The position numbers and the translations under genes are program-made. Below, piece by piece: positions 58,284-64,000 of a stretch of DNA of 64,000 nucleotides (its first letter is position 1; each line of letters opens with the position of its first letter). Under the pieces are notes generated by a model. The model saw nothing but the letters and a program-made list of their open reading frames with translations. It was not told where the DNA came from and searched no databases. The stretch comes from Escherichia coli (GTDB taxonomy: Bacteria > Pseudomonadota > Gammaproteobacteria > Enterobacterales > Enterobacteriaceae), in the NCBI RefSeq assembly GCF_051903065.1, contig NZ_CP178438.1; one strand, written 5' to 3'.

Positions 58284-58454
58284 AACCCGGATTCTCTGTA
58301 GTGACCCGCAGCCTGGAACTGCGTGTCTGTATTGCTCACAAATCAATTCCCGCCCGTGCCGGACAGGGAATGAAGTATTGCTGCCGGATGGCGCTGCACG
58401 CAGAGGCACAGCGTCACCGGGTATGCAGATTGTTGACAAAGAGCGCTTTGTTTA

Positions 58455-58565
58455 TGCCGGATGCGGCGTTAACGCCTTATCCGGCCTACAAAATCGTGCA
58501 AACTCAATACATTGCAGAATTTTCGTAGGCCTGATAAGCGGAGCGCATCAGGCAGTTTTGCCTTT
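58455..58565. repeat. REP/BIME element in the dppA-dppB intergenic region
   Basis: Two inverted REP units (TGCCGGATGCGGCGTTAACGCCTTATCCGGCCTAC ... GTAGGCCTGATAAGCGGAGCGCATCAGGCAG). Confidence 0.65.
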
Positions 58566-58590
58566 GCCATCAGTCTTGTATGGCTTTTAA

Positions 58591-60198
58591 TTATTCGATA
58601 GAGACGTTTTCGAAGTGATGTTTACCTAATGGATCAACCACATAGCCTTTAACTTCTTTGCGTACCGGTTCAAACACGGTGGAGTGAGCGATGATCAGTG
58701 CCGGAGCCTGATCGTGCATCACCACCTGTGCTTGTTTGTACAGTTCAACGCGCTTGTTGTGGTCGTCGGTAGCACGCGCCGGTTGAATCAGATCTTCAAA
58801 CGGTTTGTAGCACCATTTTGAGTAGTTGGAGCCTTGTTCAGAAGCGGCGCAGCTGAACAGGGTGGCGAAGAAGTTATCCGGATCCCCGTTGTCGCCAGTC
58901 CAGCCCATCATTACCGTCTGGTGCTCGCCATCTTTCGCACGCTTGAGGTACTCACCCCATTCGTAGGTGACAATTTTGGCCTGCACGCCGACTTTCGCCC
59001 AGTCTGCCTGAATCATCTCCGCCATGCGGCGAGCGTTCGGGTTATACGGACGTTGTACCGGCATTGCCCACAAGTCGATGGAGAAACCTTTTTCCAGACC
59101 CGCTTCTTTCAGCAAGGCTTTCGCTTTTTCAGGATCGTAGGTGTAGTCCTGAACGTCGTCGTTATAGCCCCACATGGTTGGCGGGATCAGGTTTTTCGCT
59201 GCCACGCCCGCGCCCTGATAAACCGCTTTGATGATCGCGTCTTTGTTCACCGCGTAGGTCAGAGCCTGGCGAACTTTCACATCATCGAGTGGTTTTTTCT
59301 GCACGTTATACGAGAGATAACCGACGTTCAGCCCCGGCATTTCCATCAGGTTGATGGATTTATCCTGCTTCATGCGAGCGATATCTGCCGGGTTCGGGTA
59401 CGGCATCACCTGGCATTCATTCTTCTGCAATTTCGCGTAACGCACGGAAGCATCAGGGGTAATAGAGAAAACCAGCGTATCGATCTGCGGTTTGGTGCCC
59501 CAGTAGCCATCAAACGCTTTGTAGCGGATACGGGAATCTTTTTGGTACTGCTGTAACTGGAACGGGCCGGTTCCGATTGGGTTGAGGTCCAGTTTTTCCG
59601 GTGTACCGGCTTTCATCATCGCATCAGCATATTCTTTTGACAGAATAGAGGCGAAGTCCATTGCCAGGTCAGCGAGGAACGGCGCTTCCGGGCGAGTCAG
59701 CACAAACTGAACGGTATTGTCGTCCACCTTTTTCACTTCGCTGATCAGCTCCGGCAAGCCCATGCCTTCGAAGTATTCGTAGCTGCCGCCAGAAACTTTA
59801 TGGTACGGGTTTTGCGCGTTTTTCTGACGATCGAACGAGAACACCACGTCATCGGCATTCATTTCGCGCGTCGGTTTGAATTCTTTATTGTCGTGCCACT
59901 TCACACCTTTACGCAGATGGAAGGTATAGGTTTTACCGTCTTCGCTGACTTCCCACTTTTCAGCGAGGCCCGGGATCACTTCAGTGGTGCCGATTTTAAA
60001 TTCAACCAGACGGTTATAAAGCGGGACGGAAGAGGCGTCATAGGTGGTGCCGGAGGTAAACAGCTGCGGGTTAAACCCTTCCGGAGATCCTTCTGAGCAA
60101 TAAACCAGAGTTTTAGCCTGAACACTTGCTGCGACGGTCATAGCCACCAGGCTGAGACCAAGCTTCAGCATCCCTGACTTTTTCAAGGAAATACGCAT
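58591..60198 (-). CDS. dppA: Periplasmic dipeptide-binding protein DppA
   Basis: 535 aa with signal peptide; SBP family 5. Confidence 0.95.
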   Translation of the reverse strand: MRISLKKSGMLKLGLSLVAMTVAASVQAKTLVYCSEGSPEGFNPQLFTSGTTYDASSVPLYNRLVEFKIGTTEVIPGLAEKWEVSEDGKTYTFHLRKGVKWHDNKEFKPTREMNADDVVFSFDRQKNAQNPYHKVSGGSYEYFEGMGLPELISEVKKVDDNTVQFVLTRPEAPFLADLAMDFASILSKEYADAMMKAGTPEKLDLNPIGTGPFQLQQYQKDSRIRYKAFDGYWGTKPQIDTLVFSITPDASVRYAKLQKNECQVMPYPNPADIARMKQDKSINLMEMPGLNVGYLSYNVQKKPLDDVKVRQALTYAVNKDAIIKAVYQGAGVAAKNLIPPTMWGYNDDVQDYTYDPEKAKALLKEAGLEKGFSIDLWAMPVQRPYNPNARRMAEMIQADWAKVGVQAKIVTYEWGEYLKRAKDGEHQTVMMGWTGDNGDPDNFFATLFSCAASEQGSNYSKWCYKPFEDLIQPARATDDHNKRVELYKQAQVVMHDQAPALIIAHSTVFEPVRKEVKGYVVDPLGKHHFENVSIE

Positions 60199-60765
60199 TA
60201 TTCTGCTCCAATTGTGATGTTTGTTGTTTTAACCCTTTGCAGTGGGTTGTCGCTGCCTGACCTTTTTTGTTTTTTACCCGGTCGGGTCAACGTTATGAGG
60301 TGGGGATGCCGTACTAATTAACATCAGTGTAACAGTGCGGATCCTCCATAAAATGCCCCTCGTGACCTACAATCTGTCAACAGAATGTGAAAACGTCAAT
60401 ACAGCCAACCGGGATTTACACCAACGGTGAGAATCCACAAACAAAGATTAAAAAAACTTCAAACAGCTATTTGCAGCAGAGAAATTTGTGCTACTCCAAC
60501 ATGACCAGAACAATCAGCTTAATATTTAGCAACATTTGGTGATTAAGTTTTATGCATTTAATGAAAAAAATCTGAGGAAAAGGTGGATATCTGAGCGATT
60601 AATACCATGAACGCTAAAACGCACAGCGGAAAATGCCAGCGCCAGCCATAAGTAACGCAAAAAAAGATTTAAGCAAATATAAAAAAAGACAATGGTTTCT
60701 GTCACAAATCCGTTAATGGATAGTGAGATATGGGGCGCAAATTTGGCAGGGAAATGTGTGGCGTG

Positions 60766-60853
60766 TAGGTCGAATAAGGCGTTCACGCCGCATCCGACAA
60801 TAAGTGCGGTGCCGTTGCCTGATGCGACGCTGACGCGTCTTATCAGGCCTACG
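60766..60853. repeat. REP/BIME element
   Basis: REP-like palindromes (CGAATAAGGCGTTCACGCCGCATCCGACA ... CGTCTTATCAGGCCTAC). Confidence 0.6.
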
Positions 60854-60907
60854 TCGAGTCGAACCTCCCGGCCCCCGGAGGTTCTCTTCCTCATGGGCTG
60901 CAGATGC

Positions 60908-60936
60908 AAAAAAGCCTGCTCGTTGAGCAGGCTTTT
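60908..60936 (-). terminator. Rho-independent terminator downstream of proK
   Basis: Perfect hairpin AAAAGCCTGCTCgttgaGCAGGCTTTT with flanking T-run just 3' of the tRNA. Confidence 0.7.
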
Positions 60937-60942
60937 CGAATT

Positions 60943-61019
<77 letters not shown>

Positions 61020-61110
61020 AATGCGGGGCGCATCTTACTGCGCAGATACGCCCTCGTCAATCCCTTAATAGCAAAATGCCTTTTGATCGGCGAGAAAGTC
61101 AGCAGGCCTC

Positions 61111-62802
61111 TTAGTTAGCCGCTGCCTCTTTTGTCTGCGGGATGTGACACCAGTTGTTGTTTTCGTTAATTCCACCATCCGGTGAAGTATAGCCAAGACA
61201 ACCCATGATGGTGTCGTACAGCTCTACGTGACGGCGTGGCACTTTCATGTCGGCTGCTTTTTTCAGCTGCGCAAACGCCTGCGCATTGACCGGATTTTCC
61301 AGATATTTATCTGACATCCAGACCATCATCGGTACGCGGAACTGCTCCGGCGGTGCCAGTTCACGCGGCGTGCCGTGCAGGTGCTCGCGTTCATTAATTG
61401 ACTCGCCGTGGTCAGCTGCGTAGAACACAATCGCTTTCTTATCGCGAACCTGATCAATCACACTGGAGATAAAGTGATCCACATAGGTCACCGAGTTGTC
61501 ATAGGAGTTGATCATCTGCGCTTTGGTACATCCGCTATCAACACCAATACATTCCGGCTTCCACTGCGCAAAGCTGCGCGGGTAACGCTGGGTGTAGTTA
61601 AAGTGCGAACCTTTGGTATGCAGAATGATTAGATGCTTACCATCCGGGTTGCGCCCCAGCGATTGCTGCATTTCGTCTACCAGCAACATATCATCTACCG
61701 GCTTGCCACGGTTACGTGGCTCCGCACCAATCTGTTCACGGTAAGCAATATTGTCCGCCATCGTATTGCTGTAGAACCACATTTCGCTCTGCATAGCGTA
61801 GAGGTCAGAACTGAATCCTAACTGCTTCAGTACCGCGAAAATGTTCTGTTCTTTTAATGTGCGCTGCGGATTATCTTCCGCGCCCCCCTGACGTACAAAC
61901 ATGCAACGCAGAGAGAGTTTGGTTGCGGTATCACAGGAGTAACCACGGAACGCCGCCAGATTTTTCTCCTGGGCCAGCTTCGGCGTGGTATTACGCTCAT
62001 AGCCGAAAATGCCCATATGGTCCCAACGCGTAGTTTCACCGATGATAAACACGACATAAGTGTCATTAACATTTTGCGGTGCCTGATAAGTGAATTTCTT
62101 CGCCGGGTTAAGCAATGAATTATTATCGGAAGATTCATCGACCCGCGCCCAGGCGTACAGCCCCAACGCAGAAAGCCAGTTTGATGGCAGATAAGAGTTC
62201 GCTACGACACCGCCATAACTCGGCAAATCAACGCCGGTCGCCCTCTCCACTTTCTTCTGCTGGATATCCAGCAAACGAATCGGTGCCCAAACCATAATTC
62301 CCGCCAGTACGACGACCGCCAGGCTGCGAATACGCTGCCCTGGGGTTCGCAGTTGTCGGAGCAAGGTGTAGCGACAGCGGTTATTCCAGATAAGGATAAG
62401 AGGCAATGCGCTAACGGCGATTAACCAGAGAATAAAGTTCAGACCAACAACTTCTTTTGACAGGTCGATATCGGTGGTCATGACGGAAGCGATGATGCCA
62501 TAACCAATGACCACATTAAGGAAGGTCATGTAATAGCTGGCACCTGCGGAAAAGAGCACAACCAGCGATGCCAGAATACGCCAGCTGCGGCGGCCAAACA
62601 GCGAAAGAAGACGTAGTAAAAAGAAGGTCACCAGTACGGTGGCGGCCAGTTCAACAACAGCAGAAATGCCTTTCCAGACGGTAAAATCGTGCGCATAGCT
62701 GCCGAAGCGGCGGTAAAAAACCGCGCCATTCATAAAAAGGCCAATATAGATTGCAAGCAAAAAGCTCAGCTTCTGCTGTGTAATCGATTTGATGTATCTC
62801 AT
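61111..62802 (-). CDS. eptB: Kdo2-lipid A phosphoethanolamine transferase EptB
   Basis: 563 aa from [23 protein letters not shown]-terminal TM domain plus sulfatase-like domain. Confidence 0.9.
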
Positions 62803-63056
62803 GCAAACAAACCCTGGACAAACAGGTGATAACACCCTGCTTAGCGGCTTTTCAGGCCCAGCAGGGGAAAAGTGCGGAGGTAGTCAGATAAGTAAAATCT
62901 ACACGCGCGAATAAGTAGACCACAGCAAAGGGAAAAAGTGTGGGGAAAGAGTGTGCATGAAGCACAAATTTACAAAAGTGCAAGTCCGGAATAGACCATT
63001 TTAACGGATTAACGACTATTCAGAGATAGGTTGGGCCAGGATGCTGGCCCAGTAAC

Positions 63057-63605
63057 TTACTCATAGGTGATGGAAAAATTGACAAGGGCATTCGCTGTGC
63101 CACCAGTGGCCTGAGTGTTGACGACCACATAACTCGCCTGGTAGTGAAGCGACGTGGTTTCGCCATCAATCGCCCATTCAATCGGCGTTCCGCTGGAGCC
63201 TTTGGGAACTTGCTGCGTTCCTTTATCGTCCTCTATCTTCAACGCAACACCCGTTGCGCCACCAGCCTCAAGGGCAAACATGGAATCATCATCGCTGTCC
63301 GACTGACTGTCCATCTCAACGGTCGCTTTGGATATCCCATCGCACTCTTTGAGTTCAATGGTGAAATCTTTCTTGCTCAACACCGTACCGACTGCCGCAG
63401 GTTTTTGCAGCGTCATTGTTCCCATATCGACTTCGAGATCGCTTTTTTCCATCTCGCAAGCTTTAGTGGTGATAGTGATGGAGAAATGAATATCCCCTGC
63501 CGGGCCAAGATCCGTCGCCGCATTCACCCCGCAGGCAAACAGACTCAAACTGGCGATGCCGCTATGCAGCAATAGTTTGAATTTCATGGCATCACTCCAT
63601 TTCAA
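63057..63605 (-). CDS. lpfE: Fimbrial minor subunit (LpfE-like)
   Basis: 182 aa with signal peptide (MKFKLLLHSGIASLSLFACGVNA); last gene of a fimbrial operon next to eptB; Lpf assignment is by locus position. Confidence 0.65.
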   Translation of the reverse strand: MKWSDAMKFKLLLHSGIASLSLFACGVNAATDLGPAGDIHFSITITTKACEMEKSDLEVDMGTMTLQKPAAVGTVLSKKDFTIELKECDGISKATVEMDSQSDSDDDSMFALEAGGATGVALKIEDDKGTQQVPKGSSGTPIEWAIDGETTSLHYQASYVVVNTQATGGTANALVNFSITYE

Positions 63606-64000
63606 GATATATGGTCGTTACGCCTTCAAACGTCCCGCCTTTAGGCGCTTTACCCGTCGTGCTAATCGGTAAAGCCAGCAGTCGAATCGCGGCATTGCGG
63701 TGAGTTTTAGAATCCAGGCTGCTCAAATTTAATAACGTGGTGCTGCTTGCATCATTCGGTACCAAAATTTTGCCGCTGGAATCTTTCACCAGTACGCCAA
63801 TATCGGGGTTGTCCATATCCACCGCTCGGGGATCGTCAGCATTGGTTGCCCCCTCAAGGCGCAACGAGACTTTGATACCATCCGAGATATTGTTGCAATC
63901 AAAGCCGAGGTTAATTTCTTGCTCTGTCGCACCTTCAGGCATTTGCCCTTGTCTGTTTTTAAACGCTGAGGAGGGGAATTCACCAAATGGCACATCCAGC
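63592..64000 (-). CDS. lpfD: Fimbrial subunit/adhesin (LpfD-like), 3' portion only
   Basis: C-terminal 133 aa visible; fimbrial-like beta-strand-rich sequence; stop overlaps the lpfE start; gene runs off the window. Confidence 0.55.
   Translation of the reverse strand, partial: LDVPFGEFPSSAFKNRQGQMPEGATEQEINLGFDCNNISDGIKVSLRLEGATNADDPRAVDMDNPDIGVLVKDSSGKILVPNDASSTTLLNLSSLDSKTHRNAAIRLLALPISTTGKAPKGGTFEGVTTIYLEME

Follow-up and report, generated by a model that had tools for sequence, protein, structure and literature searches.

Gene content and organization of the locus

The window analyzed in this study, a stretch of 64,000 nucleotides of Escherichia coli DNA (contig NZ_CP178438.1), ends within a fimbrial gene cluster. 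Read along the minus strand, the 3' part of lpfD (63592 to 64000, where it runs off the window end) is followed by lpfE, which encodes a long polar fimbrial minor subunit (63057-63587), a GC-rich hairpin (63032-63051) located 5 nt past the lpfE stop codon, and an lpf-type-specific segment (62986-63031). The latter was delimited by folding and alignments and lies between the hairpin and a core spacer (62803-62985), a feature without strand assignment that is common to lpf-negative E. coli and defined by BLAST similarity to K-12. The core gene eptB (yhjW; 61111-62802, minus strand), recognized by its ORF and the Pfam domains Sulfatase and EptA_B_N, flanks the lpf segment. An initial sequence-only reading of this DNA had placed two co-oriented fimbrial genes directly upstream of eptB, and this is confirmed by their common location on the minus strand and the presence of a PF00419 domain in both of them.

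Translation of the lpfE ORF from the ATG at 63587 gives 176 aa, with an N-terminus resembling a signal peptide and one pilin domain. It matches Pfam PF00419 ('Fimbrial') with E = 1.3e-20 and 74.6 bits (gathering threshold 25.6) and the NCBIfam LpfE equivalog NF011752 over its full length (1-176) with 293.2 bits (cutoff 169). The protein is by computed comparison 100% identical to WP_000669559.1 of ECNB21-M121, an accession that is also annotated in 23CRST031 and in O145:H28 RM13514. Among solved structures it is most closely related to 5n2b, FimI and FimA, with FimG and FimF coming next, and its sequence would fit the role of an adaptor as well as that of an assembly terminator.

The window covers the last 135 of the 351 codons of lpfD, corresponding to the C-terminal pilin domain of a two-domain tip adhesin, and the stop codon is located 4 nt ahead of the lpfE start. 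This part matches PF00419 with E = 1.2e-17 and 65.0 bits (gathering threshold 25.6), and the best NCBIfam match of the truncated ORF covers positions 225-359 of the LpfD model. A single substitution (D279 versus G279, base 63812) distinguishes it from the lpfD of the nearest genomes. The best match of the full-length LpfD of the nearest genome is the LpfD equivalog NF011753 with 330.8 bits; this score is below the equivalog cutoff (331 versus 412), which explains the mere RefSeq name 'fimbrial protein'. The same full-length protein aligns with E = 1e-66 to PDB entry 5AFO, which is labeled 'FIMBRIAE' in the PDB and which we take to be LpfD of the AIEC strain LF82.

The assembly route can be inferred from family membership. 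Sec would export the Lpf subunits, the chaperone LpfB would hold them by donor-strand complementation, and the usher LpfC would represent the polymerisation site, with LpfD at the tip. Lpf shares the chaperone-usher class with the type 1 fimbriae (fimAICDFGH): LpfD can be aligned with two-domain adhesins of the FimH type, and LpfE with the pilins FimI, FimA, FimG and FimF. However, Lpf has a single minor subunit after the adhesin and a different gene order, and all fim models are far under their cutoffs for the Lpf proteins.

Distribution and synteny of the lpf1 locus

The distribution of the locus was investigated by a megablast search in which positions 62803-64000 were compared with 5426 complete E. 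coli genomes. The first 183 bases of the query, either alone or together with more of it, are matched in 5345 of the 5426 genomes, while the type represented by the whole query occurs in 421 to 422 of them. A more sensitive search retrieved a divergent lpf cluster with about 67% identity at the same site in 78 more genomes, 77 of which carry the spacer of the MCJCHV-1/O127:H6 type. The lpf1 operon is located beside eptB in about 9% of the complete E. coli genomes. Only three of the 5426 genomes show an identity of at least 99% over the 12-kb flank; the nearest complete ones are 23CRST031 (5 mismatches in 12 kb) and ECNB21-M121 (99.9%).

According to the RefSeq annotation the gene order yhjX-lpfA1-lpfB-lpfC-lpfD-lpfE-eptB-proK-dppA is present in ECNB21-M121, EDL933 and 23CRST031; the annotated genomes used for this comparison are 98.8-100% identical to the stretch. 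K-12 lacks the lpf segment and harbors yhjX-eptB only. The expectation that K-12 has yhjX at this site proved correct, given that a K-12 derivative carries it immediately beside eptB. The further proposal that an Lpf type 1 operon ends between yhjX and eptB is supported by the synteny of the near-identical RefSeq genomes and by the score of the LpfE equivalog. The eptB side of the site is directly visible in the window, and genomes that are 99.9-100% identical over 12 kb show the yhjX side. A full-text search of the literature for long polar fimbriae in connection with either yhjX or yhjW returned no match.

Operons at the same site are also present in E. albertii and on a metagenome-assembled contig of Pseudocitrobacter. 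These two represent the real lpf loci among the eight that were recovered by scanning a genome collection with an LpfE alignment; the other six loci contain paralogous fimbrial subunits with 24-29% identity and were set aside. The peptide patterns of the scan were too specific to recover a Salmonella locus. Salmonella enterica lpfABCDE (Baumler and Heffron, 1995) is the founding member of the family. The NCBIfam equivalogs of LpfD and LpfE are the best models for the window proteins, with LpfD under its cutoff. The Salmonella operon exhibits the five-gene layout of lpf1 and adjoins yhjW (eptB) and proK, its neighborhood being given as 'lpfABCDE-yhjW-proK' (PMC2930847).

Allele type and integrity of the operon

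The window itself holds only the 3' part of lpfD and lpfE, and the sequence-only reading had suggested recovering the usher, chaperone and major subunit by extension of the window; all three are present in the near-identical genomes, outside the window. In the two nearest genomes lpfA1, lpfB and lpfC are intact, and an intact O145-like lpf1 operon is thus probable in the source genome as well, as judged for lpfA to lpfC from these near-identical relatives.

LpfA1 of the nearest genomes corresponds to WP_000758168.1 and is identical to LpfA1 of O145:H28 RM13514; the same LpfA1 accession is found in 23CRST031. Three residues differ from the LpfA1 of EDL933. The lpfA1-3 primer pair (PMC3417533) yields in silico a 244-bp product with 0 mismatches in EDL933, and the reverse primer shows four mismatches in both ECNB21-M121 and E105. 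The identity of LpfA1 and LpfE with the O145:H28 proteins thus indicates that this is not the O157 allele lpfA1-3. The allele lpfA1-5 has been found in 96% of the tested O145:NM/H28 strains (PMC8950694), and the locus is therefore probably lpfA1-5-like; lpfA is located beyond the window and was read from the nearest genomes. The intended comparison with the lpf allelic types has accordingly excluded lpfA1-3 on the basis of primer mismatches, and the assignment to lpfA1-5 follows the serotype association in the literature.

The closest described operons show different degrees of integrity. The lpf1 operon of O157:H7 EDL933 (lpfABCC'DE, O-island 141) shares the site, the gene order and the lpfE-eptB spacer including the hairpin, with 98.8% DNA identity over 62803-64000 and 98.9% identity of LpfE, but its lpfC contains an internal stop (lpfC/C') whereas the closest relatives of the window have an uninterrupted lpfC. 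The DNA of O145:H28 RM13514 is 99.5% identical over 62986-64000 and its LpfE is identical, but lpfB is split by IS600, in contrast to the intact lpfB of the genomes nearest to the window. The divergent lpf1 alleles (MCJCHV-1/O127:H6, lpfA1-1-like; strain 06-00048) have the same site and five-gene order, with identities to the window type of 53-57% for LpfE and about 52% for LpfD, and the published lpfA1-1 primers match this type in silico. The eptB leader of the MCJCHV-1 type also differs from that of the window type.

The junction with the core genome

The BLAST alignment with K-12 is identical at 279 of 283 positions up to 62985, where it stops, and it resumes only within the last codons of yhjX. 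Positions 62986-63031 can be aligned only weakly with the region that follows yhjX in K-12, and a second, AU-rich stem-loop is predicted by folding at about 62990-63021 within this lpf-type-specific segment. The GC content of the lpf segment is slightly reduced, with 47.4% compared to about 51% in the flanks. Direct repeats of at least 9 bp were not found at the two segment ends, mobility genes are absent from the segment of the nearest genomes, in which only lpf genes are annotated, and the proK tRNA is located beyond eptB rather than at the junction. A mobile-element insertion as origin of the segment was rejected because it has neither repeats nor mobility genes. The lpf segment represents a presence/absence and allelic polymorphism without mobile-element signatures. 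On the Pseudocitrobacter contig, the identity to this type is 88-97% for the Lpf proteins, compared with 76% for EptB and 89% for YhjX. This pattern points to homologous recombination, by which lpf alleles are exchanged at a conserved site, rather than to a mobile island.

The scan of positions 60100-64000 against Rfam (E <= 1) revealed nothing relevant in the lpfE-eptB spacer; a match to HOTAIR_2 with 18.8 bits (gathering score 60) is at chance level and was discarded. A sigma-70 promoter scan of 62700-63700 returned one weak match inside lpfE, which again corresponds to chance level (1.2 expected).

The eptB leader and promoter

The eptB gene encodes 563 aa from the ATG at 62802, as in RefSeq, and its product, the Kdo2-lipid A phosphoethanolamine transferase, is identical to WP_001269211.1. 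The spacer between lpfE and eptB had originally been given as 62836-63056 (220 bp) and is corrected here to 62803-63056 (254 bp); the earlier boundary reflects the longest eptB ORF, whose GTG start codon is at 62835.

The 5' leader of eptB (62803-62908, minus strand; about 106 nt) was delimited by motif positions. The Hfq-binding motif AU1 (AUUUUACUUAUCU) is located at 62898 to 62886 and corresponds exactly to K-12, whereas AU2 at 62873 to 62867 reads ACUUUUC versus ACUUUUU in K-12. Based on the published numbering of the K-12 leader, where AU1 comprises nt 11-23 and AU2 nt 36-42 (PMC6239178), transcription would start at about 62908.

Upstream of this start, the likely sigma-E promoter of eptB (62909-62942, minus strand) was identified as a conserved block with a consensus match. 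It consists of a -35-like CACACTT (62942 to 62936), a 16-nt spacer and a -10-like TCTAC within GGTCTACTTA (62921 to 62912), an arrangement (CACACTT-N16-TCTAC) that would fit the sigma-E consensus. The promoter block ACTTTT..CTGTGGTCTACTTA is retained in K-12, all E. coli lpf variants, E. albertii and Pseudocitrobacter, and the transcription of eptB has been reported to depend on RpoE (PMC4651636). The BLAST similarity to K-12 breaks off about 77 bp ahead of the predicted transcription start of eptB, and eptB has therefore kept both its own promoter, likely of the sigma-E type, and the leader regulated by MgrR/Hfq. Leader and likely promoter (62803 to about 62942) are untouched by the lpf segment.

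The hairpin downstream of lpfE and its counterparts

The GC-rich hairpin recognized in the sequence-only reading is real, but its position has to be shifted from 63029-63045 to 63032-63051. The DNA consists of TGGGCCAG, a 4-nt loop and CTGGCCCA, which form an 8-bp stem with 100% complementarity. The corresponding RNA, UGGGCCAG-CAUC-CUGGCCCA, has an energy of about -14 to -15 kcal/mol and is followed by ACCUAUCUCUG without a U-tract. The hairpin is invariant in the four compared sequences of this type, namely the window, EDL933, E105 and ECNB21-M121 (the latter over 62803-64000). Seven perfect 8-bp GC-rich hairpins are present in the 64-kb window compared to 1.4 +/- 1.2 in composition-preserving shuffles, i.e., they are about five times more common than in the shuffles, and the 70 nt after the lpfE stop fold with z = -3.1 relative to dinucleotide shuffles. 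The hairpin is more than a chance structure.

A U-rich tract was not found in the tail after the stem, which reads AACCUAUCUCUG. The presence of this sequence instead of a U-run documents that the hairpin is not a canonical intrinsic terminator. Its U-tail score ranges from 0.24 to 0.39, compared to 3.6-4.2 in the canonical counterparts. The d'Aubenton-Carafa-type formula was used with modern energy parameters; it is poorly calibrated under these settings, with a negative value even for the proK terminator of the window, and only its U-tail term was applied, in a comparative way. A consensus terminator scan of 62700-63700 found no terminator on either strand. However, the same scan missed the obvious terminator of the MCJCHV-1 type, where an A-tract and U-tract pair and lengthen the stem, and its zero result is therefore in itself weak evidence.

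The comparison with related loci allows us to retrace the likely origin of the structure. Its positional counterpart in the alignment is the yhjX terminator of K-12 (GGGCCAAUUAACUGGCCC-UUUUU), which is called by the same scan, has the same location with respect to the eptB promoter and a nearly identical stem (GGGCCA.../...TGGCCC). The K-12 terminator has a 6-nt loop and UUUUU directly after the stem, whereas the window hairpin has a 4-nt loop and is followed by AACCUAUCUCUG. In Pseudocitrobacter the counterpart is GGGCCAGCGUGCUGCCC-UUUUCUG. The MCJCHV-1 type contains after lpfE a different, canonical terminator with A-tract, hairpin and U-tract (AAAAAGAGGAG-AUUA-CUCCUCUUUUUU), and the hairpin of E. 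albertii is, as in the window, without a U-tract. The window type shows a 7-nt insertion, AACCTAT, exactly at the U-run of the others, in addition to T>C changes. In strains with lpf, a separate strong terminator follows yhjX and precedes the AT-rich region of the lpfA promoter.

Transcription between lpfE and eptB

The initial proposal that the hairpin terminates the fimbrial operon holds in part: the position is that of a terminator and the counterpart in K-12 is the yhjX terminator, but the U-tract is missing. Most likely the hairpin serves as a 3'-end-stabilising stem-loop and is at best a weak terminator. It would represent a remnant of, or the counterpart to, the terminator found after yhjX in K-12, from which the AACCTAT insertion and the T>C changes would have removed the U-tract in this lpf type, and it would act mainly by stabilising the 3' end of the lpf mRNA. 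Termination before eptB would then rest on Rho, acting at the C-rich and G-poor untranslated spacer; the C/G ratio of the spacer transcript ranges from 1.0 to 2.25 with a peak near 2 between 62996 and 62900. Transcription that passes the hairpin and escapes Rho would occasionally reach eptB.

A fully functional intrinsic terminator of the lpf transcript, with eptB being expressed from its own promoter only, is conceivable but doubtful. The strong perfect stem of about -14 to -15 kcal/mol, its distance of 5 nt from the stop codon, its invariance in four sequences and the equivalent position of canonical hairpin-plus-U-tract terminators in K-12, the MCJCHV-1 type and Pseudocitrobacter would all fit this explanation. 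However, the tail AACCUAUCUCUG with its low U-tail score (0.24-0.39 versus 3.6-4.2) and the consensus scan, which called no terminator on either strand of 62700-63700, argue against it. The hairpin of E. albertii without a U-tract also counts against it, thus indicating that a loss of the tract is tolerated.

The opposite scenario, a read-through that combines lpfABCDE-eptB(-proK) into one conditional transcription unit, is unlikely, even though the U-tract is absent, the genes are all co-oriented and the gap between lpfE and eptB is only 254 bp. In a study on Salmonella, lpfABCDE-yhjW-proK was regarded as a putative cistron (PMC2930847). However, 150 nt of untranslated, C-rich spacer represent a plausible Rho entry site, and eptB has its own conserved promoter. 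Moreover, H-NS and LEE-encoded regulators have been reported to keep the lpf operon under tight control (PMC5357955), and any read-through would therefore be small under most conditions. If it nevertheless occurred, fimbrial expression would be coupled to the phosphoethanolamine modification of LPS Kdo. A more specific version of this scenario appears quite improbable to us: in the O157/O145-type lpf1 the loss of the U-tract would let lpf transcription that is derepressed in the gut cross the eptB promoter region into eptB, thereby bypassing sigma-E and linking the fimbriae to the phosphoethanolamine decoration of LPS Kdo, whereas the MCJCHV-1/O127:H6 type with its canonical terminator would not do so. 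The point at issue, i.e., whether lpf transcription can pass a hairpin that lacks the U-tract and extend into eptB, is small and easily tested.

Identity and significance of the locus

The preferred explanation comprises the end of the lpf1 operon, the history of the locus, the hairpin as a terminator remnant and the O145:H28-like allele, and our high confidence applies to these elements jointly. The stretch accordingly represents, very probably, the promoter-distal end of the chromosomal lpf1 operon (lpfABCDE), a gamma-type chaperone-usher system between yhjX and eptB. Evidence against this classification would have been expected from the upstream genes or from a better match to another fimbrial family, but the nearest genomes harbor lpfB (chaperone) and lpfC (usher) upstream and the ORFs match Lpf. 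An origin of the two ORFs from a different fimbrial operon (e.g., lpf2/OI-154, Stg, Sfm or type 1) is so improbable that it is effectively refuted by RefSeq synteny and NCBIfam scores: PF00419 is common to all gamma-type pilins and LpfE also matches FimA, FimI, BcfF and other models, but all far below their cutoffs and with LpfE far above its own (293 versus 169), and the yhjX-eptB site, the RefSeq names lpfA1/B/C/E and the single copy of the region per genome are in conflict with such an origin.

The lpf1 locus (OI-141) is already known (PMC5357955). It is ordinary here and has been described before, with the absent U-tract as the sole slightly unexpected detail. Its occurrence in the present genome places Lpf1 in a rare, non-O157 background, which tells the annotator that an intact O145-like operon is probable. 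In EHEC, EPEC, AIEC and O104:H4, Lpf1 is established both as a colonisation factor and as a typing marker.

Possible exchange and probable decay of lpf1 operons

The arrangement yhjX-lpfABCDE-eptB is also found on a metagenome-assembled contig of Pseudocitrobacter sp. (CAJYVI010000071.1; L008:522-9622 in the coordinates of this retrieved locus). Its Lpf proteins share 88-97% identity with those of the window type, whereas the flanking EptB and YhjX reach only 76% and 89%, respectively, which suggests that lpf was recently exchanged between genera at one and the same position in the chromosome. This contig also carries an insertion of REP-like repeats that separates lpfE from the terminator. 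In lpf-positive strains the last codons of yhjX are unlike those of K-12 (400 vs. 402 aa), and downstream of the gene lies a strong terminator of its own, GGGGGAGGAAATCCTCCTTTTTT (L016:24336-24361 in a further retrieved locus). This part of the yhjX-lpfA1 interval is not covered by the window; after the terminator, the sequence upstream of lpfA is very rich in A and T.

The otherwise identical lpf1 operon of the O145:H28 outbreak strain RM13514 is probably non-functional, because a copy of IS600 interrupts its lpfB gene (L007:10773-12726). Within the window, base 63812 is a T instead of the C present in both nearest genomes (23CRST031 and ECNB21-M121), thereby changing residue 279 in the pilin domain of LpfD from G to D.

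REP-like sequences in the dpp-proK region

The nucleoid-associated RNA naRNA4 is derived from REP elements. A match to its Rfam family (RF02564) is located in the dppA-proK spacer at window 60768-60849 and exceeds the gathering score (72.3 vs. 59.5 bits); RefSeq annotates an ‘RtT sRNA’ in this spacer of K-12, but the nearest genomes lack any RNA annotation there. The gap between dppB and dppA (window ~58290-58590) comprises 307 bp in the window lineage compared to 150 bp in EDL933. It harbors a RefSeq-called ‘hypothetical protein’ of 75 aa (58301-58528, plus strand), whose translation resembles that of REP/BIME repeats and which is thus probably not a real gene.

Variation of the eptB leader

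AU2 is the more important Hfq-binding motif for the annealing of MgrR (PMC6239178). In the eptB leader of the window it reads ACUUUUC (62867-62873) in place of ACUUUUU in K-12, a variant shared with EDL933, E105 and 06-00048. A different leader is present in 77 complete E. coli genomes with a divergent lpfA1-1-like lpf, including one of O127:H6, and is exemplified by MCJCHV-1 (L004:6738-7000, the counterpart of window 62803-63056). This leader lacks both K-12 Hfq-binding motifs, AU1 and AU2, but the sigma-E-like promoter core of eptB is retained; the control of eptB by MgrR and Hfq may differ in this lineage.
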